Shown in pieces: positions 14,773-32,700 of a stretch of DNA of 64,000 nt; within the stretch, counting starts at the first letter, position 1; every line of letters begins with the position of its first letter. Origin of the DNA: Candidatus Buchananbacteria bacterium (GTDB lineage Bacteria; Patescibacteriota; Patescibacteriia; CAIXNZ01); the NCBI GenBank assembly GCA_014729025.1, contig WJKP01000014.1, forward strand, positions 543-64,542. Reading direction: 5' to 3'. Below the pieces are notes generated by a model. That model was not told where the DNA came from and did no database searches. It saw only the letters and a list, made by a program, of their open reading frames with translations. A program made the translations under genes and the position numbers.

Positions 14773-15754
14773 AGCAGTATCACAACCTAAAAATCAGTCA
14801 ATTGGTGATTCAGCCCCGCCCCGACAAGAAAGGCTTCAGCCAGAAGAAGAAACCGGAGTACGCAGAAATTTGCAATCAGCCCAAAAAACCACAAAAAGAG
14901 CCGGACAAGGCATGAAAGCCGCTGGCACTGGCATGAAAGCCGCTGGCACTGGCATGAAAGCCACGGGTACTGGCATGCAAGTCGCTGGAAAGGGAGCACA
15001 GGCTGCGGGTAAAGGTTTACAAGCAGGTGGCAGAGGCATGATGTCTGCTGGCTCAGCTCTTAGCAGTACAGGCGCGGGTGCTATTGCTGGAATACCTTTA
15101 ATGGCAGCCGGTGGTGCGACATCAGCAGCCGGCGTAGGTACTCAAGTCGCTGGTAAAGGTACTGAAGTCGCTGGTAAAGGCGTTAAAGCGACTGGTAAAG
15201 GTATGAAAAAAGCTGGCAAGGGTATGAAAAAAGCTGGCAAGGGTATGAAAAAAGCTGGTAAAGGTATAGAAAAACAATCTAAATTACTTAAAATGGATCC
15301 CAAAAAACAAAAGCCTACTGCTCGAGCATTAAATAAGGCTAAATCAGTAAAGCAAAAAACAAAACAAGCCAAAGAAGCAGTTCAGCAAACTAAAGAAGGA
15401 GTGAAAAAATTTAGCCAACAAGGCACAGCTAAAGCATTAAAACTATCATGGCTTAATTTAATTGATAGCTTTGGTTTAACTCTTTTATATATAAATTTTC
15501 ATTTTATTGCAAAATATATTGGTGGTATAAAATTATTTTGTGATTTTGGTGAGGAATGGGTTTCAAAAATGGATAAATTAGCTCAGGCTCCTGGAGGCGG
15601 TAAGATGATAAAAACAGCCAAAACCGGACTAAAATATGGGGAAATAATAGCTGTTATTGGACTGGATATACTCGTGTTACTTTGTTTGGTTATAGGCATA
15701 CTAATAATTTTAACACCAATAATACTTATTATAGCCGCTTTTCTCTCTATATAG
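14765..15754 (+). CDS. Repeat-containing membrane protein (Gly/Ala/Lys heptad-like repeats AG-x-GMK, C-terminal TM helices)
   Basis: 329 aa; ATG overlaps the clpC stop (ATGCCTGA); KAAGTGMKAAGTGMKATGTGM and KKAGKGMKKAGKGMKKAGKG repeats; locally GC-rich. Confidence 0.5.
   Translation: MPEAVSQPKNQSIGDSAPPRQERLQPEEETGVRRNLQSAQKTTKRAGQGMKAAGTGMKAAGTGMKATGTGMQVAGKGAQAAGKGLQAGGRGMMSAGSALSSTGAGAIAGIPLMAAGGATSAAGVGTQVAGKGTEVAGKGVKATGKGMKKAGKGMKKAGKGMKKAGKGIEKQSKLLKMDPKKQKPTARALNKAKSVKQKTKQAKEAVQQTKEGVKKFSQQGTAKALKLSWLNLIDSFGLTLLYINFHFIAKYIGGIKLFCDFGEEWVSKMDKLAQAPGGGKMIKTAKTGLKYGEIIAVIGLDILVLLCLVIGILIILTPIILIIAAFLSI
14909..14992. repeat. Four tandem copies of a 21-bp unit GGCATGAAAGCCGCTGGCACT inside CDS 14765..15754
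   Basis: Units 1-2 identical; units 3-4 carry a few substitutions. Confidence 0.8.
15200..15262. repeat. Three tandem copies of a 21-bp unit GGTATGAAAAAAGCTGGCAAG inside CDS 14765..15754
   Basis: Units 1-2 identical; unit 3 has 2 changes; degenerate copies flank. Confidence 0.8.
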
Positions 15755-15812
15755 TATTGACAGCATAGTATTGACAGCAAAATTTAATTTAATATATTAA
15801 TCATTCTAAATT

Positions 15813-17072
15813 ATGTCACCAAAAACAAAAAAAATACTTTTAATTATAATCTTTGTTATTGTTACAATTGCCATTGCTTTAGTGCTTTATTTTGTCTTTT
15901 TCCAACCATTTGTTTCACCTCCTGAACCACCAGTTGCACCTCCGGCTGTTGCCCCACCAGTCGGGCTACCAGAAGTACCACCTGCTTTAAATATCCCGGT
16001 TGCCCCGCCTTCAGTTAATATTCCTAGCGTATTACCTCCTGAAGTAACCGTCCCCGTTACTCCGACTGTACCAGGACCGGTTATTTCTCCTCAAGCTAGT
16101 GGCGGTATAACTTCTTTTGATACAATAGAAACAAACCCGGCTCAAAGTCCGACTCTAGCTAATAATGGCAGGGATTTAATTTATCATGATAAAGAAACCG
16201 GTTTCTTTTACAGTATTACGCCTGACGGTGAAAAACAACTTTTTTCAGATACTACTTTTAAAAATGTAGAAAATGTAACTTGGTCACCTAATACTCAAAA
16301 AGCAGTCATGGAATACCCTGACGGGTCAAATATTATTTATGATTTTCAACAGCAAAGATCAGTTACTCTACCTGCTCAATGGAAAGATTTTACTTTTTCT
16401 AATACTGGTGAACAAATTGCTTTTAAAGATATGAGATTGGATCCAGAAAACCGCTATATTGCTGTTGCCAATACTGATGGCACTGGTTATCGTAAAATTG
16501 AAAAAATGGGTGATAATGATGAAAGTGTTTATGTTGATTGGGCGCCTAATAATCAATATATTGCTTTATATAGCGAATCAATTGACGGTTCCAGAGCAGA
16601 AGTTTATCCAATTGGTTTTAATAGTGAAAATTTTAGAAAATTCAGAGTTGAAGGCCGTGATCTAAGATTTGAATGGTCGCCTAGCGGTGATAAAATGGTT
16701 TATAGCGTTTTTAATTCACGTTCAAATTATAATCCATCTCTTTGGGTTGTAAATACTAACCCGGAATTATTAGCTACTGGCCGTAATCAATTGGAACTAA
16801 ATACCTGGGCTGATAAATGTACTTTTGCTGCGGAATCAACAATTTACTGTGCCGTACCACAAAACCTAGAAACCGGTATGGGTTTTCGGCCTGATTTAGC
16901 CAATAAAACGCCTGATGATATTTATAAAATCGATCTAACTACCGGTACAAAAGAATTAATTGCTGAACCGCTTTATCCTTCAACAATCAATCAAATTATT
17001 ATTAGTGAAGACGGACAATATTTATACTGGATAGAACAAGGCACTGACCAACTTAAAAAAATGAATTTATAA
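15813..17072 (+). CDS. Membrane-anchored protein: Pro-rich linker plus TolB-like (PD40) beta-propeller
   Basis: 419 aa; N-terminal TM, PPEPPVAPPAVAPPVGLPEVPP linker, WSPN/WAPN/WSPSGDKMVY PD40-like repeats. Confidence 0.5.
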   Translation: MSPKTKKILLIIIFVIVTIAIALVLYFVFFQPFVSPPEPPVAPPAVAPPVGLPEVPPALNIPVAPPSVNIPSVLPPEVTVPVTPTVPGPVISPQASGGITSFDTIETNPAQSPTLANNGRDLIYHDKETGFFYSITPDGEKQLFSDTTFKNVENVTWSPNTQKAVMEYPDGSNIIYDFQQQRSVTLPAQWKDFTFSNTGEQIAFKDMRLDPENRYIAVANTDGTGYRKIEKMGDNDESVYVDWAPNNQYIALYSESIDGSRAEVYPIGFNSENFRKFRVEGRDLRFEWSPSGDKMVYSVFNSRSNYNPSLWVVNTNPELLATGRNQLELNTWADKCTFAAESTIYCAVPQNLETGMGFRPDLANKTPDDIYKIDLTTGTKELIAEPLYPSTINQIIISEDGQYLYWIEQGTDQLKKMNL

Positions 17073-17076
17073 CTAT

Positions 17077-17772
17077 ATGCCTAATAAACAAAAAAATTCA
17101 CAAACTAAAAAGAAATTCCAATTTGTTTATTTTATAGTTTTTTCAATTATTATTTTACTTATTTTTGTTGTTATAATTATCGGCTCTTTTTGGGATTATC
17201 AGGCGCAAATAAAAAAAATGGAAGATTATTATCAAGAACGTTTAGCCAAAACCAGCCAAGCTAAACCGCAAATTAATAAATTTGATCCAATTAAAGGCTC
17301 ATTAACCTCTGAAATAACTTTATTTGAATACAGTGATTTCTTTTGTCCAGCCTGCCAAAACCTGCAAAATGATTTGCAAGCTTTGGAAAAGCTTTATGGT
17401 AATAATATCCGTTTTGTTTTTAAATCATTACCAATTACTGCTCATCCGGAAAATCGTCCATCTTTAAATGCCGCCTATTGTGCCTGGGAACAAAACAAAT
17501 TCTGGGAATATAAAAAATTATTATATCAAGAACCGAAAATGTTAAATAAACAAAAATACCGCCAATATGCCGACCAATTAAACCTAGATCTGGAAACTTT
17601 TAATCAATGTTTGGAGGATAATAAATATTACCCGGTTATAGAACAAAATATTGCCGAAGCTTTAAGTTTAAATATTACTTCTATTCCAACTGTTTTTATT
17701 AATGGTGAACGAGTAGAAGGCTTTATTAATTATAATACTTTAAAGAATCTAATAGATCAACAAATCAGATGA
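17077..17772 (+). CDS. DsbA/thioredoxin-fold thiol:disulfide oxidoreductase, membrane anchored
   Basis: 231 aa; N-terminal TM, active site FFCPACQ (CxxC), DsbA-like C-terminal region. Confidence 0.7.
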   Translation: MPNKQKNSQTKKKFQFVYFIVFSIIILLIFVVIIIGSFWDYQAQIKKMEDYYQERLAKTSQAKPQINKFDPIKGSLTSEITLFEYSDFFCPACQNLQNDLQALEKLYGNNIRFVFKSLPITAHPENRPSLNAAYCAWEQNKFWEYKKLLYQEPKMLNKQKYRQYADQLNLDLETFNQCLEDNKYYPVIEQNIAEALSLNITSIPTVFINGERVEGFINYNTLKNLIDQQIR

Positions 17773-17781: not shown

Positions 17782-18324
17782 ATGCCTAAAATAAACTTTT
17801 CAAAACTTATTTTTGTTATATTTTTTTTATTTAATCTAATAATCATAAGTTGTTTAATTGCTCCTTTTGCCCTGGCAACTGAATTACAATTACAAATTCC
17901 CATTGGTGACCGACAAAGTTTTACAGTTTCTGGATCAACTATTGGAGAATATATACAGGCAATTATTGTGTTTGCTTCAGGGGCAATTATTTCATTAGCT
18001 ATTGTTATGATTATAGTTGGCGGTATCCAATGGATAATTTCCGGTGGTGTGCCTAATAAAATTAGCAATGCTAAAAATACGATTTTAAAAGCTTTTTTAG
18101 GTATGTTTATTGCTATTTTTGCTGTTTTCATCTTAGAAACAATTAATCCGAATTTAGTACAATTTAAATCATTAAGTCCCAAAACTCAAGAAAAATTGCC
18201 TTGTTGTGAATATTCAGAATCTGGAAGTAAAGATAAATTGTATAATTTTATGTCCGAAGAAAAATGCCTTAATAAAAAACCTCCGGGAAAAATAGTTAAT
18301 AATTCACAATGTTTAAATAATTAA
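17782..18324 (+). CDS. Secreted two-helix hydrophobic protein with Cys-rich C-terminus; possible TrbC/VirB2-like pilin
   Basis: 180 aa; signal peptide ending ALA-TE, two hydrophobic helices separated by a short polar loop (VirB2/TrbC topology), C-terminal CCEYSES...C...C. Confidence 0.3.
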   Translation: MPKINFSKLIFVIFFLFNLIIISCLIAPFALATELQLQIPIGDRQSFTVSGSTIGEYIQAIIVFASGAIISLAIVMIIVGGIQWIISGGVPNKISNAKNTILKAFLGMFIAIFAVFILETINPNLVQFKSLSPKTQEKLPCCEYSESGSKDKLYNFMSEEKCLNKKPPGKIVNNSQCLNN

Positions 18325-18439: not shown

Positions 18440-19774
18440 ATGCCTAAGCAAAATTCAATAATTTATAATTGTACAAAATGTGGCGCTCAATCAGCTAAAT
18501 GGACTGGGCGCTGTATTGAATGTGGTTCTTGGGGTACTATGCTTCAAGAATTATCGGAAAATCAATCAGCAGACAAGCGAAAAATTAAAATTGATAAAAA
18601 TCAATTAATTGATTTTCAAAAAAAACAGCCGGAAAATTTTAGCCGTTTACAGACTCAAATTAGTGAATTTGATCGGGTCGTTGGTAATGGTTTAGTGCTT
18701 GGCAGTTTAACTTTATTGGGCGGCGAACCAGGTATTGGCAAATCAACTCTAATCTTACAAATCAGTCAGCAAATCAAACAGCCGGTTTTGTATGCTTCCG
18801 GTGAAGAATCAGCCAGCCAAATCAAAATGCGTATTGACCGTTTAAAATTACCTTTACAAAATCTTAAATTTTTAGCTACTAATAATATTGAAAAAATAAT
18901 AGCCTTTGCTATTGAAGAAAAACCCAGTCTTTTAATTATTGATTCTATTCAAACATTGTATTCCAATGAATTGCCATCCGAAGCCGGTTCAGTTAATCAG
19001 GTTCGTATCTGCACGGTTAAACTTTTAGAAATTGCCAAAAAACACAATCTATCAATTATTATTATCGGTCATGTAACCAAAGACGGCCAAGTTGCCGGCC
19101 CCAAATCACTGGAACACCTGGTTGATACCGTGCTTTATTTGGAAGGCTCTAAGACTGATAATTATCGACTTTTGCGTTGCGTTAAAAACCGTTTTGGCTC
19201 AACTAATGAATTGGGAATTTTTGATATGACCGGCCAAGGCTTAATTGAAGTCAAAAACCCTTCTGAACTTTTTTTCAGCCAAAAACAAGAACCAATCTCC
19301 GGTTCGGCTATTACTTGTATTATGGAAGGCAGCCGGCCTTTTTTAATTGAAATTCAGGCTCTAGTCAGTAAAACTTTATTTGGCTATCCGCAAAGAAAAA
19401 CAGCCGGTTTTGATTTAAATCGCTTGCAAATGTTAATTGCGGTTTTAATTAAACGCGCTGATACTCCTTTAGTCAACCAAGATACACATTTAAATATTGT
19501 CGGCGGTTTAAAAATAACTGAAACAGCGCCTGATCTGGCTGTTTGTTTGGCAATTATTTCTTCTTTAAAAAATAAAATTATTTTGCCAGATACTTTAATT
19601 TTAGGCGAAGTCGGCTTAGGCGGTGAAATCAGGCCGGTTTATCAAATAGATAAAAGAATCGAAGAAGCCCAAAAATTAAAATTTAAAAATATTATTACAC
19701 CGGTTATTAAAACCAATAAAAGCGGTTTGATTATGGTCAAAAATATAAACGAAGCCATTAAACAAATATTTTAA
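18440..19774 (+). CDS. radA: DNA repair protein RadA (Sms)
   Basis: 444 aa; N-terminal C4 zinc finger (CTKCGAQ...CIECGSWG), Walker A GGEPGIGKST, KNRFG motif, Lon-like C-terminal domain. Confidence 0.92.
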   Translation: MPKQNSIIYNCTKCGAQSAKWTGRCIECGSWGTMLQELSENQSADKRKIKIDKNQLIDFQKKQPENFSRLQTQISEFDRVVGNGLVLGSLTLLGGEPGIGKSTLILQISQQIKQPVLYASGEESASQIKMRIDRLKLPLQNLKFLATNNIEKIIAFAIEEKPSLLIIDSIQTLYSNELPSEAGSVNQVRICTVKLLEIAKKHNLSIIIIGHVTKDGQVAGPKSLEHLVDTVLYLEGSKTDNYRLLRCVKNRFGSTNELGIFDMTGQGLIEVKNPSELFFSQKQEPISGSAITCIMEGSRPFLIEIQALVSKTLFGYPQRKTAGFDLNRLQMLIAVLIKRADTPLVNQDTHLNIVGGLKITETAPDLAVCLAIISSLKNKIILPDTLILGEVGLGGEIRPVYQIDKRIEEAQKLKFKNIITPVIKTNKSGLIMVKNINEAIKQIF

Positions 19775-20450: not shown

Positions 20451-22517
20451 TTATTCTAAATGAGCAATTATTTTAATTTGCTCTAATTTATTTTTCAATA
20501 AAGGAAAATTTTTAAAATTATTTTTATCAAAAAATTCCTCAGCTTCTTTTTTAGTCAAATTAATCAAATCCAAATCAGTTAAACTGGCTATTTTTAAATC
20601 CGGCATGCCTGATTGCCTGGTACCATAAACTTCACCAGGTCCGCGAAATTTTAAATCATATTCAGCCAAAGCAAAACCGTCAGCTGACTTAACCAAAGCT
20701 GATAGTCTTTCAGTAGTTTTGTTATTATAATTATCAGTAAACAAAAAACAATAAGATTGATACCCCCCCCTGCCCACTCGACCGCGAAACTGGTGTAATT
20801 GCGCCAAACCAAAACGATCAGCTCCCTCAATCATCATAATAGTGGCATTCGGTATATCAATCCCCACTTCAACTACAGATGTTGAAACTAAAATATTTAT
20901 TTTATTATTTTTAAAATCAAGCATGATTGATTCTTTTTCCTGAGCTTTTAATTTACCATGCAAAAGCCCGATATTGAATTCGGGAAAAATAAATTTATCC
21001 AGCTTTTTAAATTCTTGCTTAACTGATTTAACACCTAATTTATCAGATTCATCAATTAAAGGGCAAATAACAAAAACTTGCCGGCCGTTTTGAATTTCTT
21101 GCCGAATAAACTGATAGGCTTGATTTCTATTTTTTTCAGCAACCAGCTTGGTAATTATTTTTTTACGGCCCAGAGGCATTTGCTTAATCATTGATAATTC
21201 CAAATCACCGTATAAAATCAAGGCTAAAGAGCGCGGTATCGGCGTAGCCGTCATAGAAAGAAAATGAGGAGCTGTTTTATTTAAATTCTTTTCTTTTAAT
21301 TTTTTTCGCTGTTCTACGCCAAAACGATGCTGTTCATCAATAATAACCATGCCTAAATTATTATATTGCAAATCATCCTGAATCAAGGCATGCGTGCCAA
21401 TAATTAAATCCGCCTCACCGTTTTTTATTATTTCTTGAAATTCATCTTTTTTTATTTTTGCTTGGTTATTTAAAATACGCTCGCTACCAGTAAGCAAAAT
21501 AATATTAAAATTAAAATTTTGAAAAAATTTATTTAATGTAATAAAATGCTGTTTAGCCAAAATTTCAGTTGGTGCCATCAAAACAGCCTGTTTCTTATTT
21601 AAAATAACATTTAACATAGCCAGTGCAGCAATCACTGTTTTACCTGAACCCACATCTCCTTCCAATAATCTATTCATTGGTTTGGCTTTTTCCAAATCCA
21701 AAAAAATTTGCCAAGCAGCTTTTTTTTGATCAGCTGTTAATTCAAAAGGTAAAAATTTAACAAAATCAACAATCTCTTTTTCTTTAAATTTAATTTTAGC
21801 CGCCTTATTTCTAGCCAAATAACGCCTAGATAATTGATTATTAGCTTGAATTAAAAAAAGCTCATTAAATTTCAAACGATAAAGAGCTTGCTCTAAAACT
21901 TTAAAATTTTGAGGGAAATGAATTATTGATAAAGCTTGGCTTAAAGATAACAAATTATGTTTTTCTTTAATCTGATTAGGCAACCAATCTTTTATTAATT
22001 TAACTGATTTTAAGGCTTGATTAATTAAAAAACGTATTTGTTTTTGTGTTAAACGACCGGTTACAGAATAAACCGGAATAATTTTTGCGGTATTTAAATT
22101 TTGGCCTTTTTTAGCTTTTTCATAAGCAGGAGAAACAAATTGCAAACCTAAATTATCAAACTCAACTCGGCCTGAAATAAATACTTGATCTCCTGTTTTT
22201 AAATTTTTTATTAAAAATGGCTGATTAAACCAAATAATTTTAATTGAACCGGTTTCATCTTCAATCAAGGCTTCTGTAATAGTTATTTTTTTTCTAAAAC
22301 TACGGCGATTATTAATTAAAATGATTTTACCTTTAACCGTAACTGTTTGATTGGGCAATAATTGATTGATTTTTATAATTTGGCTAAAATCATCATAACG
22401 AAAAGGAAAATAATAAATCAAATCAAAAACAGTATTAATACCGATTTTATTTAAAAGTCGAGCGGTTGTCTTACCAACACTGGTTAATTTTTCAATTGAT
22501 GTCTCTAAATCATACAT
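20451..22517 (-). CDS. recG: ATP-dependent DNA helicase RecG
   Basis: Wedge domain plus helicase motifs DVGSGKT and DEQHRFG. Start moved to the internal Met (MYDLETS...) at 22517; the upstream 17 codons of the track ORF run through a tRNA gene. Confidence 0.9.
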   Translation of the reverse strand: MYDLETSIEKLTSVGKTTARLLNKIGINTVFDLIYYFPFRYDDFSQIIKINQLLPNQTVTVKGKIILINNRRSFRKKITITEALIEDETGSIKIIWFNQPFLIKNLKTGDQVFISGRVEFDNLGLQFVSPAYEKAKKGQNLNTAKIIPVYSVTGRLTQKQIRFLINQALKSVKLIKDWLPNQIKEKHNLLSLSQALSIIHFPQNFKVLEQALYRLKFNELFLIQANNQLSRRYLARNKAAKIKFKEKEIVDFVKFLPFELTADQKKAAWQIFLDLEKAKPMNRLLEGDVGSGKTVIAALAMLNVILNKKQAVLMAPTEILAKQHFITLNKFFQNFNFNIILLTGSERILNNQAKIKKDEFQEIIKNGEADLIIGTHALIQDDLQYNNLGMVIIDEQHRFGVEQRKKLKEKNLNKTAPHFLSMTATPIPRSLALILYGDLELSMIKQMPLGRKKIITKLVAEKNRNQAYQFIRQEIQNGRQVFVICPLIDESDKLGVKSVKQEFKKLDKFIFPEFNIGLLHGKLKAQEKESIMLDFKNNKINILVSTSVVEVGIDIPNATIMMIEGADRFGLAQLHQFRGRVGRGGYQSYCFLFTDNYNNKTTERLSALVKSADGFALAEYDLKFRGPGEVYGTRQSGMPDLKIASLTDLDLINLTKKEAEEFFDKNNFKNFPLLKNKLEQIKIIAHLE

Positions 22518-22527: not shown

Positions 22528-22599
22528 TGCCCCCGGCAGGAATCGAACCTGCATCGCGAGATCCGCAATCTCGTGTTCTATCCGTTGAACTACAGGGAC
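22528..22599 (-). tRNA. tRNA-Arg (anticodon GCG)
   Basis: Hand-folded cloverleaf: acceptor GTCCCTG/CGGGGGC (two G-U), D-arm GTTC/GAAC, anticodon stem CGAGA/TCTCG with loop TTGCGGA, T-arm GCAGG-TTCGATT-CCTGC; CCA not encoded. Confidence 0.65.
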
Positions 22600-22670: not shown

Positions 22671-23168
22671 TTATAATTTTAAAATAGTCTCCAGCTGATC
22701 ATCTAAAGACTGATTTTCTCTATCCAAGTCTTCATCAATATAATCTAATAATTTTTCACGAATAACTAAAGGGTTCATATCATCCAAAGGTACGGAAAAA
22801 TCAGGCGAAAAACCTTTTAAGGTGAAAAATATTTTCTTAACTTCCGGCGGATCATAAATAAAATAAAAATTTTTAATATTACGATAATTGAAAAATTGGT
22901 TGCCTAATAATATACCGTCTTCTGTTATTTTAAATTTCAGGTTTCTCGGCTTAACATAAATTCTTAAAAAAAGAATAAATACAAATAAAATAATAATCAA
23001 AGCAAACAGAAAATTTTCAGTAAATATGCTATAAATAATAAAAACACCGACTAAAAAAAATGTAGCTGCATACCAAAGATAGCTCCTGGTATGTTCAGGA
23101 AATTCCGGAACTTCCCATTCAAAAAAAGTTTCACCAAAATCTTTTTCTGCCATATTTTTTTGGGCCAT
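22671..23168 (-). CDS. Hypothetical membrane protein (2 TM)
   Basis: 165 aa; two hydrophobic helices near the N-terminus, acidic C-terminus. Confidence 0.4.
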   Translation of the reverse strand: MAQKNMAEKDFGETFFEWEVPEFPEHTRSYLWYAATFFLVGVFIIYSIFTENFLFALIIILFVFILFLRIYVKPRNLKFKITEDGILLGNQFFNYRNIKNFYFIYDPPEVKKIFFTLKGFSPDFSVPLDDMNPLVIREKLLDYIDEDLDRENQSLDDQLETILKL

Positions 23169-23239
23169 AATAATTTATTTAAGTATTATTAATTATATTA
23201 TAACGTAATAATCAATGAATTTCAAGTATTTATTAACAG

Positions 23240-23268: not shown

Positions 23269-23285
23269 ATAGGTTAAGAAACCCA

Positions 23286-23376
23286 GGAGAGGTACCCAAG
23301 TGGTTGAAGGGGCGGGTTTGCTAAACCTGTAGGTCGGTTTTATGCCGGCGCGGGGGTTCGAATCCCCCCCTCTCCG
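23286..23376 (+). tRNA. tRNA-Ser (anticodon GCT), type II with long variable arm
   Basis: GGAGAGG acceptor pairs CCTCTCC; anticodon loop TTGCTAA; variable arm stem GTCGG/CCGGC; T-loop TTCGAAT; discriminator G. Confidence 0.85.
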
Positions 23377-23469
23377 CCCGAACCAGAACCATTAATTTTA
23401 AAATTGGAAAAGATAAAAAAAAATATATATTGGATATACTGCAAATTTAGAAAATCGATTCCAACAACA

Positions 23470-23556
23470 TATTTTATCATGGAGAGGTGGCAGAGTGGAC
23501 GAATGCACCGGTCTTGAAAACCGGAGCCCCGGCAACGGGGCCGAGGGTTCGAATCC
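23470..23556 (+). tRNA. tRNA-Ser (anticodon TGA), type II
   Basis: GGAGAGG/CCTCTCC acceptor, anticodon loop CTTGAAA, variable arm CCCCGGCAACGGGG, T-loop TTCGAAT. Confidence 0.85.
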
Positions 23557-23691
23557 CTCCCTCTCCGCAGGAAAAATTTTAGCACTTTTGTGGTGAAATT
23601 TTTTCTTATGTGGAGTAGAAAGGCTGCAGAATCCTCCTCCGTTAAGCCATCGGGCATATTTTTAAATCCAATCCTCTCAGCATAAAAAGTA

Positions 23692-24411
23692 TTAATCCTC
23701 TCTTTGGGCTATTACTAAACCATAAATTTCACTAAAACCTTTTTGTTCTAAAGCTTGAGCTGATTCAATTAAGGTACTGCCAGTTGTTACAACATCATCA
23801 ATTAATAAAATTTTTTTATTTTTTATTGATTCCTGATTATTAAAAATAAAGGCATTTTTAAGATTGGTTTGTCTTTCTTGCCGATTCAAATTAACCTGGC
23901 TCATGGTATTAATTTGCCTAATTAATAAATTTCGTGTAGGGATTTTATAATATACACTTAATTTTTGGGCCAAAAGCTCACTTTGGTTAAAGCCTCTGGC
24001 CAAATAACGCTTTTTATGCAAAGGCACGGGACAAATTATAGTATTATCAAAATTAATTTGAAAAATTTTTAAAATATTATTGGCTTTAAGATACCGAATT
24101 ATCAGATCTCCCAAATAATCGCTAATTTCCTCAACAAAATTATATTTTAAATTATGCAATAAATTTTGCAATATTTGATTATTATAATCAGCTACAACAA
24201 AAACAGCTTTTAAAGCTGTCTTTTTTTTACAATTTTCGCAAATTTGACTATGGTTCGTTTGTTTTTTACATAAAACACAATAAAATTGTTTGTTTAATTC
24301 CAAACGTTTAAAACAAGTGTGGCATAAATAAGTTTCTTCCAAGCCACAACTAATGCATTCTTTAGGAAAAATTAAATCAATAAACCAATCTTTCAATTTT
24401 AATATATCCAT
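23692..24411 (-). CDS. comF: ComF family protein (ComFC; double zinc ribbon plus phosphoribosyltransferase domain); last gene of the T4SS-like operon
   Basis: 239 aa; N-terminal CxxC...CxxC...CxxC...CxxC and C-terminal PRTase motif LLIDDVVTTGSTL. Confidence 0.8.
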   Translation of the reverse strand: MDILKLKDWFIDLIFPKECISCGLEETYLCHTCFKRLELNKQFYCVLCKKQTNHSQICENCKKKTALKAVFVVADYNNQILQNLLHNLKYNFVEEISDYLGDLIIRYLKANNILKIFQINFDNTIICPVPLHKKRYLARGFNQSELLAQKLSVYYKIPTRNLLIRQINTMSQVNLNRQERQTNLKNAFIFNNQESIKNKKILLIDDVVTTGSTLIESAQALEQKGFSEIYGLVIAQRED

Positions 24412-24449
24412 ATTCCCAATAACTAATTACCAGTGACTAATGACTCAAA

Positions 24450-25118
24450 TTATTGCCAATAAGCACCGTCTACTTTCCATTCGTCATCAATTTTAACAAA
24501 TGATAATAAAATATCCTGATAAAATACATCGGGATTATTTATATCATTATTAAATTCCTGCCTTTGTGTTTTTACAATGACTTCTGCTTCACCGGCTTCT
24601 TCATCCAAATTTTCCACTTGTTTTGATATAGCTTTAGTTTCAATCGCATAATAAGTATTAAAATCAGGATTTTGTTGCCTTAAATTTTCTTTATAAGTAT
24701 TATTAACCCAATCAGTCATTGATTCAGTCATAAAAACTGATAAATCATCCAAATTAGCATAATTACTCTGATTAGAATAACTGCCAAATCTTTCGGCAAA
24801 TGCTTCGGCTATTAATAAAACGCTTACTTGCTCGGCTTGATTAACTTCCTCAACTTCACCATTTAAAGCCTCCGAATCAGACAAAACCGTCGCATTGGTA
24901 TTATTAAAATTAGTTAAATCAGGTAAAGGCTGATCAGGCAAAGCAGCTGGCTGATTTGTGTTGGCATTTAAATTTGTTTGTGGCGGTGCTTGATCAACAT
25001 TAAAATAAGTTAATAATAAATAAATAATAGCAGCAATAATCAAAAGTAATAATAAAATTACCGCCAAAATAATGATTTTCTTTATTTTTTTTGCTCGTTC
25101 TTTTGACTGTTCAGCCAT
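24450..25118 (-). CDS. Bitopic membrane protein (short cytoplasmic N-terminus, one TM, about 180-aa extracytoplasmic domain); possible VirB8/TcpC-like component
   Basis: 222 aa; topology and size fit VirB8-like proteins; located directly downstream of virB4; no sequence motif recognised. Confidence 0.3.
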   Translation of the reverse strand: MAEQSKERAKKIKKIIILAVILLLLLIIAAIIYLLLTYFNVDQAPPQTNLNANTNQPAALPDQPLPDLTNFNNTNATVLSDSEALNGEVEEVNQAEQVSVLLIAEAFAERFGSYSNQSNYANLDDLSVFMTESMTDWVNNTYKENLRQQNPDFNTYYAIETKAISKQVENLDEEAGEAEVIVKTQRQEFNNDINNPDVFYQDILLSFVKIDDEWKVDGAYWQ

Positions 25119-25154: not shown

Positions 25155-27101
25155 TTAAATATCAATTTCTTCCACTCCACCGCCTGTTTTAGGCGGAGTT
25201 TTGGGTTGACTTTCAGCAGATTCAGCTACAGCACCGCCTGATTCTTCTTCAAATTCCCTTTTTGAAGCTTCAATCTCTAATAATTGTTTGGGGTCAGTCG
25301 TAATCAATTGATCTTCACTGTATGAAGCCACTATTTTAATTGCCGCATGCTTTCTACCGGCAAAAAAGATACCTTCACCAACACCACATTCCAAAAGTAA
25401 GTATTTCTCGCCTTCAGTCAATAAAAATACTTTTTGAATATTATCAATCGCTGCAGGTGATTGCTTTAATAGTAATTGCAAAGCTGAATTGGTTACAATT
25501 GCGCGGCCATAAGGACTGTTCAAAAAATCATTTACATCCTGGGTAATAGTAGTTACACCTAAATAATATTTTCTACATCTTTTTACTAAAGCATAAATAA
25601 ATTTTGCTGAATCTTCATGTGTCATTAACCACCAAGCTTCATCAATTACTAAAATTCTTTTCTTTACTTGAGAACGTACTACATTCCAAATATAAGTTAC
25701 GATCGTATATATAGCTATTGGCCTTAATTCATCTTCCAAATCTCTAACGCTAAAACAAACCAACTGATTTCTCATATCAACATTAGTCGGCTGATTAAAT
25801 AAGCCGGAAAAAGTCCCTTCAGTATATTTTCTTAAACGTAAACTCAAATCTTCAGCACCTTCCATGCCTTCCAAAATATTCTGCAAATCCTGCATAATTG
25901 GCGGTTCAATTTTTGCTAAATCAGCTTGTGGCGTAATATCTTTTGAAGCATAAGTTTCTATTAAAGCACGATCCAAAATTGAATCTTCTTCGGTTGTTAA
26001 ATCACCGAGCATTAAACGTAACAAACCTTTTAAAGAAATTACACTGCTTCTAATAATATCTTCTGCGCTGGCATCGCCAACTCCTCTTGGCAAATCAAAC
26101 GGATTAATTTTTTCTTTTGACGCCAAAGAAATATTAACATAAGTTCCGCCAACTGCTTCGGATAAATGCGCGTATTCTCTTTCGGGATCAATAATAATTA
26201 CATCTGTACCTAGCATCATACTTCTTAAAACTTCCAATTTTACGGCGTAACTTTTACCGGCGCCCGAGGTAGCAAAAACAACATAATTGGCATTTTGCAA
26301 TGAAAATCTTTCAAATATAATTAAACTGTTATTATGCCTGTTTACACCGTATAAAATCCCCTCATCAGAAGTTAATTCTGATGAAATAAACGGAAAAGAA
26401 GAAGCAACCGGTGAAGTATTCATGTTAAAAGAAATTAAAAGCTCGTCATTAGCTAACGGAATAGTTGAATTTAAACCTTGTTCTGCCTGATATAAAACTT
26501 TTTTAGTATAAATTAGTTTGCCACCAAAAATTGATTCTACTTCTGAAGTCAACTCGTCTAAATCTTCTTCATTGTTGGCATAAATAGTTGTATATAATGC
26601 AAACTGAAAAAATCTTTCTATCCCTTGGGTTAAATCATCTCTTAATTTTTCAATATCTCGTAAAGCTGTTTCCAAAATAGGATCACGTGGCGCGCCTTTT
26701 TCAATATCTGACATTAATTGAGCCTGTAAATTACCCACCCGTTTTTTTAATTGTTTTAAAATTATTTCTGCTTTTACAGGATAAAAAAACATAGAAACAT
26801 CTAAGGTCTTGCTTAAACTAATTATTGGTGTAAACCAGCCAATAGTTATATAACGAGGATAATTTAAGACAAAAATAGTTCTAACATAAGTATCACCCAA
26901 AATAACATAAGTTGGTTTAACCTTAAAAGCAGCCGGCGCAATTAAATCTTTAACACTGACTTGTCCTTTACGATAAACTTTTTCTTCTTCTAAGGTAATC
27001 TCTTCTGCCTTAACGGCTGCTTCTGCGGATTTTTTTTGCTGATTTTTTTCTTCCTCCCCAGAAGATTGATTTTTTTGAGGTGTTGGTACTTCTAAAGCCA
27101 T
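25155..27101 (-). CDS. virB4: VirB4-family T4SS ATPase (Gram-positive TcpF/Orf16/PrgJ-like), ATPase part
   Basis: 648 aa; IAPAAFKVKPTYVILGDTYVRTIFVLNYPRYITIGWFTPIIS block typical of Firmicutes VirB4 homologs, Walker A SGAGKSY, Walker B VIDEAWWLM, TITQDV motif. Confidence 0.8.
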   Translation of the reverse strand: MALEVPTPQKNQSSGEEEKNQQKKSAEAAVKAEEITLEEEKVYRKGQVSVKDLIAPAAFKVKPTYVILGDTYVRTIFVLNYPRYITIGWFTPIISLSKTLDVSMFFYPVKAEIILKQLKKRVGNLQAQLMSDIEKGAPRDPILETALRDIEKLRDDLTQGIERFFQFALYTTIYANNEEDLDELTSEVESIFGGKLIYTKKVLYQAEQGLNSTIPLANDELLISFNMNTSPVASSFPFISSELTSDEGILYGVNRHNNSLIIFERFSLQNANYVVFATSGAGKSYAVKLEVLRSMMLGTDVIIIDPEREYAHLSEAVGGTYVNISLASKEKINPFDLPRGVGDASAEDIIRSSVISLKGLLRLMLGDLTTEEDSILDRALIETYASKDITPQADLAKIEPPIMQDLQNILEGMEGAEDLSLRLRKYTEGTFSGLFNQPTNVDMRNQLVCFSVRDLEDELRPIAIYTIVTYIWNVVRSQVKKRILVIDEAWWLMTHEDSAKFIYALVKRCRKYYLGVTTITQDVNDFLNSPYGRAIVTNSALQLLLKQSPAAIDNIQKVFLLTEGEKYLLLECGVGEGIFFAGRKHAAIKIVASYSEDQLITTDPKQLLEIEASKREFEEESGGAVAESAESQPKTPPKTGGGVEEIDI

Positions 27102-27112: not shown

Positions 27113-27766
27113 TTATTGTTCTATACGAAGTTTATTAATATCGCGTAATTTTTGATTTTGGCTGGTTCTTGGATTATAAACATTATAATATAATTCAATC
27201 AGACTCTGAGTATCTAAAACAGCGGTTTCTAAACCCATGCCTCTTAAATTTGACTGAATATTATTGATTCTTAAGCGCAAATCCTCTTTATATTCTAAAA
27301 ATTTTTCTCTCTTAATTTTTATCAATTTACCAGGTGTAAATAATTCTTTTAATCTTGTCCAAAAACTTTTGGATTTATCACCTAAAGGATCATAAGGGAT
27401 TACAATAAAAAAGCTTTTAGTCATGATTTCGCCTATTTCAATTAATTCTTGGATATATTCTATATAACTGTTTATTTGTACTTTTAATAGGTCGTTAGTC
27501 TGTTTTTTTCTCGCTTCATTTAATCTTCTTAAATAACCTTCAATATCTAATTGCCTAGACTGAATAACTATTTGCATAGGATGATCTAATGAATTTAAAA
27601 ACTGCATATAACCGCTGATTAAAGCTTTTTGTTCATCTTCTGATTTTAATGCGAAATTAATACTGGAACATAAAATAACTGAACGTAAAGTACCGTCTTT
27701 TAAAATAACCACTCCTTCTCTGATTTCGGCAATATCCAAGTGTTTTTGGGTTGTATTTTTTGCCAT
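27113..27766 (-). CDS. VirB4 N-terminal (CagE/TrbE/VirB-type) domain encoded as a separate ORF
   Basis: 217 aa; ILKDGTLRSVILCSSINFALKSEDEQKALISGYMQFLNSLDHPMQIVIQS resembles the conserved N-terminal block of VirB4 proteins; 11-nt gap and different frame to the ATPase ORF. Confidence 0.5.
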   Translation of the reverse strand: MAKNTTQKHLDIAEIREGVVILKDGTLRSVILCSSINFALKSEDEQKALISGYMQFLNSLDHPMQIVIQSRQLDIEGYLRRLNEARKKQTNDLLKVQINSYIEYIQELIEIGEIMTKSFFIVIPYDPLGDKSKSFWTRLKELFTPGKLIKIKREKFLEYKEDLRLRINNIQSNLRGMGLETAVLDTQSLIELYYNVYNPRTSQNQKLRDINKLRIEQ

Positions 27767-27774: not shown

Positions 27775-28206
27775 TTATTTAATTATTTCTTCTTCCCTAA
27801 AAGCACCGCCTGTATTAACAACCAAAGATAAAGAAGATAATTTATCACCGACCAAAGGTTCTTTGGGCGTAAATTTTTCTTCCTCTTTTTTTTCTTCTTT
27901 TTTGGGCAATTCAGTTATTTCTGTTTTACCCCATAGTCTTAAATTAGGTCTTTTTAAGGTCTGAACTAAATTTAAAAAGAAATAATGAAAAGGCATACCA
28001 TTGACTTTAAAAAAAGCTATCATGCCAAAAATTGCGGTTGTTAATAAAGCAACAATTATAAAAGTAGTAAAATAAAACATTTTATAAAAAATAAAATCCA
28101 ACATACCGGCCACCATCATAATAAAAAATTGCCGAGTCGTAATTGGACCAATAATTTTACTTTCAACATCAATAAATTGTGGTACTAAAAATTGATCAAA
28201 AGCCAT
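27775..28206 (-). CDS. Small 2-TM membrane protein, VirB3-like by position and topology
   Basis: 143 aa; two adjacent TM helices, charged C-terminus; sits just upstream of the VirB4 ORFs as VirB3 does. Confidence 0.35.
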   Translation of the reverse strand: MAFDQFLVPQFIDVESKIIGPITTRQFFIMMVAGMLDFIFYKMFYFTTFIIVALLTTAIFGMIAFFKVNGMPFHYFFLNLVQTLKRPNLRLWGKTEITELPKKEEKKEEEKFTPKEPLVGDKLSSLSLVVNTGGAFREEEIIK

Positions 28207-28209: not shown

Positions 28210-29760
28210 TTAATATTTTAAATTTTTATTTAATTCCATTATTGATTTAAATTCTAATAATTCTAATTCATCTGTCTCTTCAATCACTTGTTCAAAAGAT
28301 TTACCTTGATTAATTGCCTTATTCATTATATCGGCATAAATTTTATAAAGCGGGCTTTTCTTCAAAGCTTTAATCCCCTCAACTTTTTTAACTAATGATT
28401 CATCTTCCAATAAATTAAGTTTTTCTTTTAATTTAGAAGTTGCTTCCTGGGGATCTTTGGATAAACGCCGAAAATCAGCGATTGTAAAAGACGCTAATTC
28501 TTCAATCGGACCGTATAACCTTGGGGTAAATTTAACATCTTCTACTTTTGGCCGGCCACCTTGTTTTTCTTGTTTTTTAAAAATCGGCTGCTGAGAAACT
28601 TGTTTGTCTGCTGGTGGCGTTTGCGATTCAGCTGGAGCTTGACTTGTTACCTCATTTTTTTTAATTGATTCTTTTTTTGCTACAGTAACTTGAGATTGTT
28701 TATCCTGCGCTATTCCTTTTTTAGCTTTTACTGAAGTAGGTGTATCTTGAATTGAGTTTGGTGCAAAATCAAAATCAGCAAACGGATCTTTTTCTTTAGC
28801 CGACAAATTGACGTTTTTTTCTATACCTGGCTCTTTTTTTTCTTCTTTAGCCGAATCTGACTGAGCTGCCATAGGCGGTGGCGGAGCTAACTCTTCATTT
28901 GTCTCTAAAAAATCTTCTTTATCTTCTATTTTATCAGCTAAATCCGCAGATTCTTCTTTTTTTTCAATAAACTCTTCTTTTTCTTTTAATTCCCGTTTAA
29001 TTGCTTCTTTATGAGCCAATTCTTCAAACTCGACGCCTTGATCTTTTAACAATTGATCAATAGTCACTTCTTCCCCGGTAGTTTTTTCAGGCTTTGTCTC
29101 CGGCTTAACTGGTTTTGATTCAACATCTATATTAGTTTCCTGTACAACATCGGATTTAGGCATAACAAATTCTTCTGGCAAACTTTTTTCATATTCGGCA
29201 ATAACTTCATTAATATCAACATCTTCTTTTTCCATTTCTTCTTTTTTAACTTCTAATAAATCCCGTAATTTATAAAAACTTTCTTCAGGCATACCAACTC
29301 CCCCAATTTTGTCTGAACGGGTCATTACTTCTTTTAATTCAGCAAAATCACGAACATCCTTTAACCAACTAACCAAAGCTTCTAAAAATCTTTGTCTGAT
29401 ATTATCATTTTTAATTTTAAATTCCGGCAACTTGGCTAATAATTCATCGGTCATTATTGGCGGACTGAATTTATTTGCAGTTTTATCTTGTAAATTTTTT
29501 TTGATCGGTTCTAATTTTTCTTGTTTATCAAGTATTGAGGTTTTTAAATCATACGCCAAATCACCGGCTTTATTAAAATCAAGCTCTAATTTATCGCTAA
29601 ATAATTCAATTAAATCAAGTGGTTGCACCTTACCTAAAATAGCGTCAATTAAAATCTCCAATACTTTATCTTTATTTTCTAATTCATAATCTTGTAGAAT
29701 TTTTTTTAAATCATTGCTCAAATCACCGAAATCTTCTATTTTAAATTTATTGTCAGTCAT
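28210..29760 (-). CDS. Hypothetical acidic soluble protein (Glu/Lys-rich, coiled-coil-prone)
   Basis: 516 aa; no TM, no recognisable motifs; 3-nt gap to the next gene. Confidence 0.4.
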   Translation of the reverse strand: MTDNKFKIEDFGDLSNDLKKILQDYELENKDKVLEILIDAILGKVQPLDLIELFSDKLELDFNKAGDLAYDLKTSILDKQEKLEPIKKNLQDKTANKFSPPIMTDELLAKLPEFKIKNDNIRQRFLEALVSWLKDVRDFAELKEVMTRSDKIGGVGMPEESFYKLRDLLEVKKEEMEKEDVDINEVIAEYEKSLPEEFVMPKSDVVQETNIDVESKPVKPETKPEKTTGEEVTIDQLLKDQGVEFEELAHKEAIKRELKEKEEFIEKKEESADLADKIEDKEDFLETNEELAPPPPMAAQSDSAKEEKKEPGIEKNVNLSAKEKDPFADFDFAPNSIQDTPTSVKAKKGIAQDKQSQVTVAKKESIKKNEVTSQAPAESQTPPADKQVSQQPIFKKQEKQGGRPKVEDVKFTPRLYGPIEELASFTIADFRRLSKDPQEATSKLKEKLNLLEDESLVKKVEGIKALKKSPLYKIYADIMNKAINQGKSFEQVIEETDELELLEFKSIMELNKNLKY

Positions 29761-29774: not shown

Positions 29775-32700
29775 TTAAGGAGTAGAGCCTTTTTTCTTTT
29801 CGCTTACCTTATAACCAATTTTTTTCATTTTACTTTTGAATTTCGCTAATTCACCATTAAAAGCTTTTGAATTAGGAGCTGTTTGTAAAGCTGATATTAA
29901 ATTATTAAATTCCTGTTCTACTAAATTGGGATCGATACTGTCTTCATTGAGAGCACCTCCTGTTATTTCATCTTTCAAATGCTTAATAAGTCCGTCTACT
30001 TTAAATTGCATTCTACTTGGATCTTTATTACCTTTTTCAAACTGCTCTTGAATTGAATCAGCATAATTACGCATTTTAACTGAAGCTGATTTCTTTAATT
30101 CTTCTGTATCTCTATGTCTATCTTTAATTTTTGATTCATTCTCAATTAATACTTCGGCTGTTTTGGTCGCATTAGAACCTTTCAATCCTGTATTATCGGA
30201 AATTTGCTTAGCTATAACTTTTATACGCTCCTGCTTATCTTGCTCCTCCTCAGTTGCTTCTAACATCTCAAAAGCTTCGTCGTCAATATATTTTACAGCT
30301 TGTTGCTTTGCAGTTGCTGAAGCGGCTGGTGGCATAACATTTTTCACATTATCTTCAATAACAGCTCGTGCGCCTTCTTTTTTTCTAATTTTATTAATTT
30401 TTTGGGCAATATTTTTATTTTTCGTACCCTCTTTTTGAACACGACCGTCATCATCATATTCGGCACTGACCGCTTTATATAATTTTTGGTGTCTTTCTAA
30501 TTCTGGGGCTGACAGATTAGCTGTTTGATCATCCATTTTTTTATAATATTTTTCGATCCTGGCTTCCCATTGGCTATCAGTTTCTGATAGACCTGTTGTC
30601 GGATCAATTCTGCGATGTAAGCTTTGATCAAAATGTTGTTTATTGTTTTCAATAATTTCTCTTCGCTCAGCATTATTTTGCGCAAAACGCATTTCTTCTT
30701 TAACTTTAACATTGGCACGCGAAGGATCATCCCAGCCTGAAACACTGGCTACTTTATAAGTCAAGCCGTCCATCTCTGCACCTGCAAAATCTGGAGATTC
30801 ACTTGGATCACCAAAATCTTTTTGCTTGGCTATCTTATTAGCTTGATCATCACTCACACTGGCCGTGCCTTCACGAACTTCTTTCCTTTTACTTTGTAAA
30901 ACATCACCCAATCTGGCCACATTATAAAAATCAGAACCAATATCAGTACCACTGCTTACCAAATTTTGTAAAGCTTCTTGTTTGTCTTGAGATAAATCCT
31001 TAAAAGCCTTTGAGCTTGTATCAAGTTTATAAGTACCGTCGTTATTTTTTTCAGTAATACTTTTCATTTCAACATCACTTAAATCGACTGCGTTACCACT
31101 ATTATCTACGGCATTACGCATAGAAGCCTCGCCTCTTTGTTCTAAGTCACTTAAATCTTCATATTCATTAGTTTCTTCATTATAAACCAATGAAGAAAAA
31201 GCTTTTTTCCTACCAGTTGATTTTTCCACTCGGTCTTCCATGTCTTCTAAAAATAATTGTTTTTCTAATTTATCCTTATCCTTAAAAAAACCTGCTTGTT
31301 GTAGCTGTTTAACTTCTTTATTGGTTAATTTACCATTATCAGCCAACGTCTGAGCATAAAATTCCATGGCTTCTTTATTTTTACTTACTGCATCTAAATC
31401 CTTAACATTACCGTCTTCATCTATATTAGTTTCACCCCCTAAAATTTCTTTTTTAAATTGTTTTTTAACTTCTGCGGCATTTTTTTTATTGATATCCGTC
31501 CTTGTTTCACCATAAGCTTCAGCATGCTTAGCATCAGTCTCTCTTTTTGTTGCACTACCTACAATCGGTTTTTTTATTGCTGCTTGTAATTTTTCCATTC
31601 CTCTAGCCCTTCCTGCCTTAGTTAAATATTTACCCACACGAGACCGTTCTAATCTTTGAGCTCCGGCTTCTCTAGTAGCACCTACTAAAGGCTTGGCTGC
31701 TCTACCAGCCCATCTAGCTGGGGCTGTTACGGCTCTGGCTGATCGTCTAGCACCTCTTTCCAGTGTATTTTGGGCGGTATTTTTCATTTTATCTGCGGCT
31801 CGGCCAGCCATTCCAGAACCAGCTACGGCAAATTCTTGAGAAAATTTTAAACCACCCACTAACATAAGAATCCCCATCATAATAGAAATCATATTATCCA
31901 TGCTACCGGCTTTACTATTAAGAATCTGCTGGCCTTGTCGTTTCCCAAAATCATATTGATCACTTGGTACCATTTGATCATGATTAAGATTAACCATGGT
32001 TAAAAGTGCTAGCCAAAGAAAAAAAGCCATAAAAGGACCGATCATACAATAATTGAAAAATTGCCCCCACCATTTACTGGCCAAAGAACCGACAGTACCA
32101 CCTTGTCCTTGAAAAACCCAAGCAAAAAAAGCTAATGGAGAAAAAACAACCAAAGCCCATAAAGCAACTATTCTAAAAGCCAAAATTATACAAAAAATTA
32201 ATAAAACAATCAAAGTAACTACAGTATAAATTAAACCTAAAATAGATGCAGCTATCATGGTTAGTCCTTCATTCCAATCTATTTTATCTTCTAAAGCACC
32301 AATGGGATCCTCAGCTATTCGAAACCAATCGGTCATGGCTAAACCTTTAAAAATATTACCGGCCGAAATATCCTTATAAGCATTAACAAAAGTTATCATT
32401 AAAACTTGGAAAAAATCTATAATTAAACCGCAAATAGTCTTGCTAAAATTTACCAAAATTGCCATAATCAATAGCCTGGCCAAAAGCTTATTCCATTGAT
32501 ATTTTTCAATTTTTAAAACAGTCACAAAAGCAATAAAAAGTAAGCCTAAAATAAAAAACATGTTAACCAAGTCACGCAAAATTACCCAGCCTTCATTAAC
32601 ATAGGGATTATCAATAAACCGATTATACATACTTATCCATACAATAACTTCCATCAGCAATATAACCAATTCCCCACAGAGCTGTGTCAAAACACCAATC

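Follow-up and report, generated by a model that had tools for sequence, protein, structure and literature searches.

A comF gene that closes a string of type IV secretion genes in Candidatus Buchananbacteria: a conserved junction and its probable origin by inversion

Results

The comF gene and the string of genes upstream of it

The stretch of DNA analyzed here (the window) comprises 64,000 nucleotides from a genome of Candidatus Buchananbacteria (assembly GCA_014729025.1, contig WJKP01000014.1, positions 543 to 64,542), a lineage that we take to belong to GTDB class ABY1 of the Patescibacteria. Its comF gene, which encodes a ComFC-family protein, lies directly behind a string of genes for a type IV secretion system (T4SS). 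In model bacteria ComF(C) is a membrane-associated factor that binds single-stranded DNA (ssDNA): it is a partner of ComEC and passes incoming DNA to the recombination machinery. Eight genes precede comF on the same (minus) strand with gaps of 3–39 bp, and the string measures ∼18 kb. It begins with a 287-aa TSP3-repeat protein, the most upstream of the eight and followed by the 39-bp gap, and runs through proteins of 2637, 1070 and 516 aa, PrgI/VirB3, a TrsD-like protein, VirB4 and a VirB8-like protein to ComF:

32996..40909, minus strand: cysteine-rich surface protein of 2637 aa with a CBM_4_9 domain; first large gene of the string
29775..32987, minus strand: polytopic membrane protein of 1070 aa, candidate VirB6/TrbL analogue, conserved in position
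28210..29760, minus strand: conserved 516-aa protein (p516), with syntenic homologues in all ABY1-like loci
27775..28206, minus strand: PrgI/VirB3-like membrane protein, 143 aa (PF12666, 37 bits, above the cut-off of 27)
27113..27766, minus strand: TrsD-like protein, 217 aa, equivalent of the VirB4 N-terminal domain (NF041427 TrsD, E = 6e-9)
25155..27101, minus strand: VirB4 ATPase, 648 aa, the C-terminal (ATPase) part of a split VirB4 (NF045971 CD1110 family, 365 bits, above the cut-off of 325)
24450..25118, minus strand: bitopic protein of 222 aa, VirB8-like by its predicted fold, with an N-terminal transmembrane helix, a disordered linker and an NTF2-like domain
24412..24449, minus strand: gap of 38 bp between the virB8-like gene and comF, with a weak Shine-Dalgarno-like motif (GGGA) before the ATG
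23692..24411, minus strand: comF (ComFC family), 239 aa, ATG start; double zinc ribbon at the N-terminus, phosphoribosyltransferase (PRTase) domain at the C-terminus

The initial annotation had called the last of these genes comF (ComFC), and the call is correct. The zinc ribbon matches PF18912 (DZR_2) with 32.8 bits (Pfam cut-off 27) and the PRTase domain matches PF00156 (Pribosyltran) with 36 bits (cut-off 26.3). An alignment of 43 homologues shows cysteines C19, C22, C30, C33, C45, C48 and C61 in every sequence and C58 in at least 90%; in the phosphoribosyl pyrophosphate (PRPP) loop (DDVxTTGxT; scanned with the pattern DDVxTTG[SAT]T[LM]) D205, D206, T209 and T213 never vary, and conservation is at least 90% at V207, T210 and G211. 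Two NCBIfam models are matched over their full length, both below the curated cut-off: TIGR00201 (comF; E = 3e-32, 112 bits against 233.55) and NF008616 (GntX; E = 8e-34, 117 bits against 304), of which GntX, a ‘DNA utilization protein’, is the best match. The majority of sequence matches in the PDB are PRPP synthetases and orotate phosphoribosyltransferases (OPRTases), while a profile search of the PDB touches the ComF of Helicobacter pylori (7p0h) at the PRPP motif. Close homologues carry the names ‘ComF family protein’ or ‘competence protein ComFC’, and the protein of the window is 100% identical to one from a Candidatus Buchananbacteria metagenome-assembled genome.

The upstream genes, together with a pilin gene further along the window, belong to a T4SS of the MPF-FATA-like type of Patescibacteria: there is a monoderm-type VirB4, a separate TrsD, VirB3 (PrgI), a protein of predicted VirB8 fold and a VirB2-like pilin. 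VirB4 also matches P-loop_TraG (97.6 bits), and the TrsD-like protein, whose homologues are TraC-like, aligns to the N-terminus of VirB4 models. VirB4 (25155–27766, minus strand) is divided into a TrsD-like protein of 217 aa and an ATPase of 648 aa, as it is in all related loci. The 222-aa protein is classed as VirB8-like from its predicted fold; a sequence-profile search of the PDB with its family returned nothing meaningful. A FliL-like label (from the JGI annotation and weak NCBIfam matches) was dropped, the predicted fold favoring VirB8. Neither the 516-aa nor the 1070-aa protein has a Pfam or NCBIfam match, although a Falkowbacteria homologue of the latter has a weak match to TrbL_3. The 2637-aa protein, a candidate adhesin or host-contact protein, is kept upstream in close relatives only.

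No VirB7, VirB9 or VirB10 family was matched in the string using Pfam and NCBIfam, and the match to the CedB model NF041017 is partial and local (44 bits against a cut-off of 700). Among the open reading frames (ORFs) of the 64-kb window scanned against Pfam there was neither a relaxase nor a type IV coupling protein; either gene may lie beyond the window. The initial annotation had suggested locating comEC, comEA and dprA; none is present among the scanned ORFs of the window, nor was ComFA found in the window.

The virB8–comF junction

A scan of the gap (24412–24449) returned neither a terminator-like nor a promoter-like match, and the RNA of the gap region has no stable hairpin (minimum free energy −14.3 kcal/mol, z = +0.75 relative to shuffled sequence). 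The promoter scan is uninformative in DNA of 31% GC, with 34 matches against 30.9 expected from shuffled controls. A convergent tRNA-Ser gene lies 123 bp past the comF stop, so that comF is the last protein-coding gene of the unit. Its place at the end of the VirB4 string, as the initial annotation proposed, is therefore borne out, and the search for a terminator or promoter in the gap turned up nothing that would separate the two genes.

The same compact arrangement is found in relatives. Taking the PxxCxxC motif of ComF (residue 16 in the protein of the window) as the reference point, the distance from the stop of the virB8-like gene has a median of 70 nt and is no more than 100 nt in 33 of 38 distinct linked loci. 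The untranslated stretch is ∼40 nt or less in most of these 38, and in several the called ORFs touch or overlap. Transcription of comF by read-through from the T4SS string is most likely.

Conservation of the junction

A metagenome scan with the VirB4 of the window returned 80 loci. Linkage was counted in the 33 loci (individual loci carry L-numbers below) whose VirB4 reaches 65% identity or more and whose sequence continues for at least 1.8 kb downstream; 21 loci with a VirB4 of 39–55% identity served as a distant set. The order virB4–virB8–comF, with comF co-oriented and immediately behind the VirB8-like gene, holds in 31 of the 33 related loci and in none of the 21 distant Patescibacteria VirB4 loci. 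The concern raised in the initial annotation, that comF might be generally unlinked from virB4 in related genomes, is thus answered for the relatives of the window. Lineages with the junction include Uhrbacteria, Falkowbacteria and Magasanikbacteria.

Across the linked loci the identity of ComF to the protein of the window ranges from 26 to 60%, and the junction is kept even at 26–34%. Where VirB4 is 69–75% identical and 8.7–10 kb of downstream DNA is available, comF is retained in ten loci out of ten, recG or radA in none of them: the junction is more durable than the neighboring synteny. As a background we used comF loci from across bacteria, gathered by a scan seeded on a generic PRTase motif and representing a broad sample at 27–39% identity rather than close relatives; among the matches listed VirB4 lay nearby in three of 80, all of them ABY1-like and two of them labelled ‘Gammaproteobacteria’. 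This sample also supplied comF loci of other Patescibacteria classes. Adjacency of comF and virB8 is far beyond chance.

A general rule that the T4SS of Patescibacteria always lies next to DNA genes was considered and rejected: comF is nearby in 0/21 distant VirB4 loci, and in other classes the usual neighbors are reported to be dnaA, dnaN, rnpA and ksgA. Two records with an ABY1-type T4SS–comF locus and a VirB4 68–74% identical to that of the window (L003 and L042; CAZSPT010000029.1 and CAZUKY010000008.1) are titled ‘uncultured Gammaproteobacteria bacterium’; they are probably mislabelled or mis-binned.

An old comF–recG block and two arrangements of it

On the far side of comF the window carries tRNA and recombination genes, followed by genes of the opposite strand:

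23481..23568, plus strand: tRNA-Ser(tga), convergent with comF; end mark of the transcription unit
23286..23378, plus strand: tRNA-Ser(gct)
22671..23168, minus strand: p165, a two-transmembrane protein of 165 aa, conserved partner between comF and recG
22528..22599, minus strand: tRNA-Arg(gcg)
20451..22517, minus strand: recG; the listed TTG-start ORF extends to 22568 and overlaps tRNA-Arg
18440..19774, plus strand: radA
17782..18324, plus strand: T4SS pilin, VirB2-like (PF18895, 31 bits, above 26.6), separated from the VirB4 string by the comF–recG block
14765..17772, plus strand: proteins of 329 aa (p329) and 419 aa (p419) and a DsbA-like protein
12319..14772, plus strand: clpC, which precedes comF in the probably ancestral arrangement

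Both recombination genes named in the initial annotation are present, radA at 18440..19774 and recG at 20451..22517 (or 22568), along with the cluster of three tRNAs (Arg-gcg, Ser-gct and Ser-tga). The true start of recG is probably near 22517, clear of the overlap with tRNA-Arg. MPG and radA are convergent with the genes on the comF–recG side, and a 105-aa ORF at 23340–23657 (minus strand), which overlaps both tRNA-Ser genes, is spurious.

Written from the T4SS outward, with arrowheads for direction, the order in the window is T4SS>VirB8>ComF>p165>RecG> <RadA<pilin<DsbA<p419<p329<ClpC<M48<LemA. A different order is found in two ABY1 loci (L165 and L167), where LemA>M48>ClpC>ComF>tRNASer>tRNASer>p165>tRNAArg>RecG> is convergent with <RadA<DsbA<p419<pilin. 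In Kerfeldbacteria comF likewise follows clpC, as it does in Komeilibacteria, where the T4SS operon is divergent and ∼6 kb off; the clpC>comF pair recurs in Parcubacteria, Moranbacteria and one Saccharibacteria locus. The complementary state, in which another end of the segment abuts virB8, is seen in L112 and L114 (VirB4>VirB8-like>transmembrane/pilin-like genes>p419>DsbA>pilin>RadA> <RecG) and in L168 (VirB4>VirB8-like>109 aa>RadA> <RecG<p171); these three and L163 are basal ABY1 lineages that do not have the virB8–comF junction. The genes for p419 and DsbA move together with pilin and radA, and in other ABY1 lineages lie directly after virB8, so that in the non-inverted state T4SS genes (pilins, DsbA and p419) are contiguous with virB8.

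The succession comF–tRNASer(tga)–tRNASer(gct)–p165–tRNAArg(gcg)–recG is complete in L165 and L167 and present in part in the Saccharimonadia loci L019, L023 and L054; most of the scanned loci of ABY1 and Saccharimonadia have a tRNA-Ser gene after comF. Judged by this distribution, it is an old block of Patescibacteria. To judge from gene order, a single inversion, of the segment [ComF..RecG / RadA..p329] flanked by clpC and the T4SS operon, separates the two arrangements, and the virB8–comF junction is probably its product. The clpC>comF state is probably ancestral, because it is found also in Parcubacteria, Moranbacteria and Saccharibacteria and because the comF–tRNA(–recG) block is present in Saccharimonadia. 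On a neighbor-joining tree of VirB4 the comF-linked loci form one large clade, with the other states at the base of the ABY1-like group.

These comparisons bear on two further points. The initial annotation had treated recombination genes beside comF as supporting a T4SS role in DNA import; recG cannot serve in this way, since the comF–recG block is old and independent of the T4SS, occurring in ABY1 and Saccharimonadia, and several classes have clpC–comF with no T4SS within 10 kb. The idea of a T4SS-specific paralogue of comF was also rejected, because the T4SS-linked gene retains the comF–tRNASer–p165–tRNAArg–recG micro-synteny of the clpC-linked comF of other lineages.

Several details of the block are worth recording. 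Behind comF, both ABY1 and Saccharimonadia carry the tRNA genes Ser(tga), Ser(gct) and Arg(gcg), in that order (L165, L167, L162, L019, L054 and L023); in the lineage of the window (22528–23568) both tRNA-Ser genes are on the opposite strand, with the order unchanged. The p165 gene, whose product has a weak match to DUF5673, lies between comF/tRNA-Ser and tRNA-Arg/recG in ABY1 (22671–23168, minus strand, in the window; 9003–9533 in L165; 9213–9722 in L161); a 26% match stands ∼6 kb from comF in the Parcubacteria locus L001 (about 15928–16431), and weak matches (∼20%) occur in Saccharimonadia. In two loci of higher-GC ABY1 (L112, 9772–15670; L114, 11635–17497) virB8 is followed by pilin-like transmembrane proteins, a 417-aa protein, DsbA, a pilin-like protein of 459–469 aa and radA, in what looks like an undivided form of the T4SS cluster. 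Between MPG and radA the Uhrbacteria locus L161 has a 133-aa ORF (14208–14609, minus strand) with a faint match to Y1_Tnp (IS200-like transposase), possibly a mobile element inside the rearranging block.

comF and T4SS genes in other Patescibacteria

In four of six Saccharimonadia comF loci a T4SS pilin array precedes comF by 0.8–4 kb, and an Hsp20 gene of opposite orientation lies between the two; in L032 both PrgI and a TrsD-like gene are no farther than 10 kb away. For one member of this group, S. epibionticum ML1, genetic data are available (Wang et al. 2023, Cell; PMC10633639). Its T4SS comprises SEML1_0006–0019, and according to the supplementary tables SEML1_0019 (pilin) is followed by SEML1_0020 (Hsp20), SEML1_0021 (ComF, K02242) and SEML1_0022 (tRNA-Ser). 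Transposon sequencing found the T4SS genes and Hsp20 essential and comF non-essential at every time point; comEC, comF and dprA made no significant contribution to fitness, while transformation requires comEC (PMC10633639).

Elsewhere the association is missing: comF has no T4SS gene closer than 10 kb in L001, L002, L004, L005, L064, L070 or L166, which represent other Patescibacteria lineages. The comF of a Minisyncoccales genome is surrounded by genes for type IV pili. ComEC and PilB/C/M/T have been reported for the ABY1 type species, and ComF therefore has its canonical partners in the class.

Other genes in the window

A 205-aa ORF at 55930–56547 (minus strand) matches Bac_rhodopsin (PF01036, 83 bits) and encodes a microbial rhodopsin; it adjoins a TspO/MBR gene (54186–54662). 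An anaerobic ribonucleotide reductase set at 49787–53499 (minus strand) consists of NrdD (684 aa), a radical-SAM activase (233 aa) and NrdR (154 aa), and is consistent with reliance on imported ribonucleotides.

Discussion

How comF came to stand behind virB8

We favor, at somewhat better than even confidence, the view that inversion carried an ordinary comF to the 3′ end of the T4SS operon, with which it now shares a transcript. The gene would be the organism's ordinary ComF(C) competence gene, and the block to which it belongs an ancient one that elsewhere stands after clpC. The segment holding this block, together with the convergent radA–pilin–dsbA genes, lies between clpC and the T4SS operon; a flip of this segment in a large subclade of ABY1 would have brought comF up against virB8 in place of the pilin/radA end. 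The gene would thereby have been captured into the T4SS transcription unit and be expressed by read-through from the string. A comF that had come to depend on the T4SS promoter would make the junction hard to break, and its tenacity would then be explained without any shared function: the outcome would be a DNA-handling factor co-expressed with the T4SS. This view starts from the gene identities and their order, the short gap free of a terminator signal, the conservation and the two orientations of the block, all of which are observed; from these we infer co-transcription and the polarity of the inversion, and a functional coupling would likewise have to be drawn from them.

Several observations weigh against it. 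The polarity of the inversion is not secure, since it leans on a quick neighbor-joining tree of VirB4 on which L003, a comF-linked locus, branches near the basal lineages. The continuity of the non-inverted state is pieced together from halves on separate contigs: L165 and L167 end before the T4SS, and L112 and L114 end in recG. The 3′ end of virB8, in AT-rich DNA (31% GC), may hold an internal promoter. Finally, comF, recG and radA are near the T4SS whichever way the block is oriented, and comF is near a T4SS pilin array in Saccharimonadia; so persistent a proximity could reflect function and not history.

This last point leads to functional coupling, in which the ABY1 T4SS would be a contact-dependent machine for DNA acquisition, analogous to ComB of H. 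pylori or to the archaeal Ced/Ted systems: ComF would receive ssDNA at the cytoplasmic face, with ComEC or at a VirB4/VirB6/VirB8 translocon, and RadA and RecG would process the DNA. We regard this as possible but rather unlikely. In its favor, no relaxase or coupling protein was found among the scanned ORFs of the window, and both are generally absent from the T4SS clusters of Patescibacteria; comF, recG and radA fall within ∼15 kb of the T4SS in both orientations, either comF or radA following virB8; comF flanks the T4SS pilin array in S. epibionticum and four of six Saccharimonadia loci; the virB8–comF junction survives the loss of neighboring synteny; H. pylori, with its ComB T4SS, ComEC and ComFC, offers a precedent; and the same hypothesis has been voiced in print (PMC12102498). 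However, S. epibionticum needs its T4SS but can dispense with comF, comEC and dprA, and its transformation requires comEC. Moreover the operon-level link is confined to part of ABY1, being absent from the 21 other VirB4 loci, and seven comF loci have no T4SS within 10 kb; basal ABY1 lineages keep an intact T4SS with comF detached from the operon; and the link between comF and recG is older than the T4SS association and independent of it. The initial annotation had reasoned from co-transcription to import. Membership of comF in the string stands, but the functional step does not follow, because the junction looks like the product of a block inversion, which would suffice to explain co-transcription without a functional link; the dispensability of comF in S. 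epibionticum and the presence of ComEC and type IV pilus partners in ABY1 point the same way. A ComB-like import role for this T4SS is possible, neither demonstrated nor new.

Two other explanations carry less weight with us. One is that comF is transcribed separately, from a promoter inside or just after virB8, the gene order being conserved simply because the genome is small and rarely rearranged. The gaps flanking virB8 (36 and 38 bp) are among the largest of the string, exceeded only by that after the 287-aa gene; 120–150 bp separate the called ORFs in a few relatives; and there are many promoter-like sites inside virB8 (for example 24787–24759 and 24927–24900, minus strand) in this AT-rich DNA. 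We nonetheless think it improbable, given that the gap itself has no promoter-like match, that matches in the region are no more numerous than in shuffled controls, that no terminator follows virB8, and that most relatives have a gap of no more than ∼40 nt, with ORFs touching or overlapping in several. The other takes ComF to be a PRTase enzyme of nucleotide salvage, or a GntX-like protein for the use of DNA as a nutrient (as with E. coli GntX). The PRPP-binding loop is intact, the best NCBIfam match is to GntX, PDB matches are mostly PRPP synthetases and OPRTases, and Patescibacteria lack nucleotide synthesis. Against this the zinc-ribbon plus PRT architecture is the signature of ComF, and we know of no ComF protein for which PRTase activity has been demonstrated. 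The PRT domain of H. pylori ComFC is described only as a ‘putative’ phosphoribosyl transferase that is needed for activity in vivo, and the protein binds ssDNA (Damke et al. 2022). An enzymatic role seems to us scarcely credible.

Implications

The relaxase-less T4SS is widespread in Patescibacteria, and Saccharibacteria cannot grow as epibionts without theirs. Genomes offer few hints that such systems might acquire DNA, and the conserved presence of a DNA-uptake factor in the operon is one of them. The comparative picture weakens that hint: the block is ancient, the inversion probable, and comF dispensable where the T4SS is essential. One may still imagine, as a speculation that we think very unlikely to be right, that the ABY1 system, monoderm in type and devoid of relaxase and coupling protein, is a dedicated DNA importer in which ComF replaces the coupling protein: on the cytoplasmic side it would be the ssDNA receptor for the VirB4/VirB6/VirB8 translocon and would supply RadA and RecG. 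If true, it would be a bacterial counterpart of archaeal Ced, partly or wholly independent of ComEC. By itself, the virB8–comF finding leaves existing knowledge unchanged.

Comparison with known systems

The archaeal Ced/Ted systems resemble the T4SS of the window in being a reduced, T4SS-like apparatus with a VirB4-like ATPase, which in their case imports DNA for recombination; they are unlike it in that the CedB match is partial (44 bits against 700), the other components differ and Ced/Ted has no ComF. A parallel for the position of comF is the comFA–comFB–comFC operon of Bacillus and Streptococcus (PMC12663950), in which ComFC, again a zinc finger joined to a PRT domain, comes last in an operon for membrane-associated DNA-transport ATPase machinery. 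There, however, the ATPase is the DEAD-box helicase ComFA acting with ComEC, whereas the ATPase upstream of comF in the window is VirB4.

The ComB system of H. pylori is likewise a T4SS without relaxase or coupling protein, and its use is DNA uptake. It is a diderm VirB2–4/6–10 system with uptake shown; the T4SS of the window is monoderm in type and has no detected VirB7/9/10. To our knowledge H. pylori comFC (HP1473) is not within the comB operons. ComB performs the first uptake step, after which ComEC and ComFC act; ComFC is described by Damke et al. (2022) as a membrane-associated protein that is needed for transformation, binds ssDNA, functions in transport across the inner membrane and passes DNA to recombination. 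S. epibionticum ML1 shares with the window a comF followed by tRNA-Ser at the edge of a T4SS cluster, but there comF follows the pilin array across the oppositely oriented Hsp20 gene and is outside the VirB4 operon.

Closest of all are the ABY1 T4SS loci described by Quinonero-Coronel et al. (2025, Microb Genom 11:001409; PMC12102498), at which comF, recG and radA were noted; the authors proposed that these functions are coordinated and that DNA or other macromolecules may be imported. The same study reports a separate TrsD (the split of VirB4 being general in Patescibacteria), VirB8 homologues concentrated in ABY1, a general absence of relaxase and coupling protein from Patescibacteria T4SS clusters, and dnaA, dnaN, rnpA and ksgA as the usual T4SS neighbors in other classes. 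The window matches these loci in its monoderm MPF-FATA-like VirB4, separate TrsD, PrgI/VirB3, VirB8-like protein and VirB2-like pilin, in having comF, recG and radA in the locus and ksgA upstream, and in having no relaxase or coupling protein nearby. Both the linkage of comF to the T4SS and the idea of import are therefore already in print (PMC12102498). The main text of that study gives co-localization only, and a search of its supplements found no terms or counts for comF, recG or radA. What our analysis adds is the position of comF as terminal cistron directly after the gene of predicted VirB8 fold, with counts of 31/33 related against 0/21 distant loci; the alternative arrangement with radA/pilin after virB8, the clpC–comF state, the probable inversion history and the old comF–recG block; and the Saccharimonadia parallel with its essentiality data.

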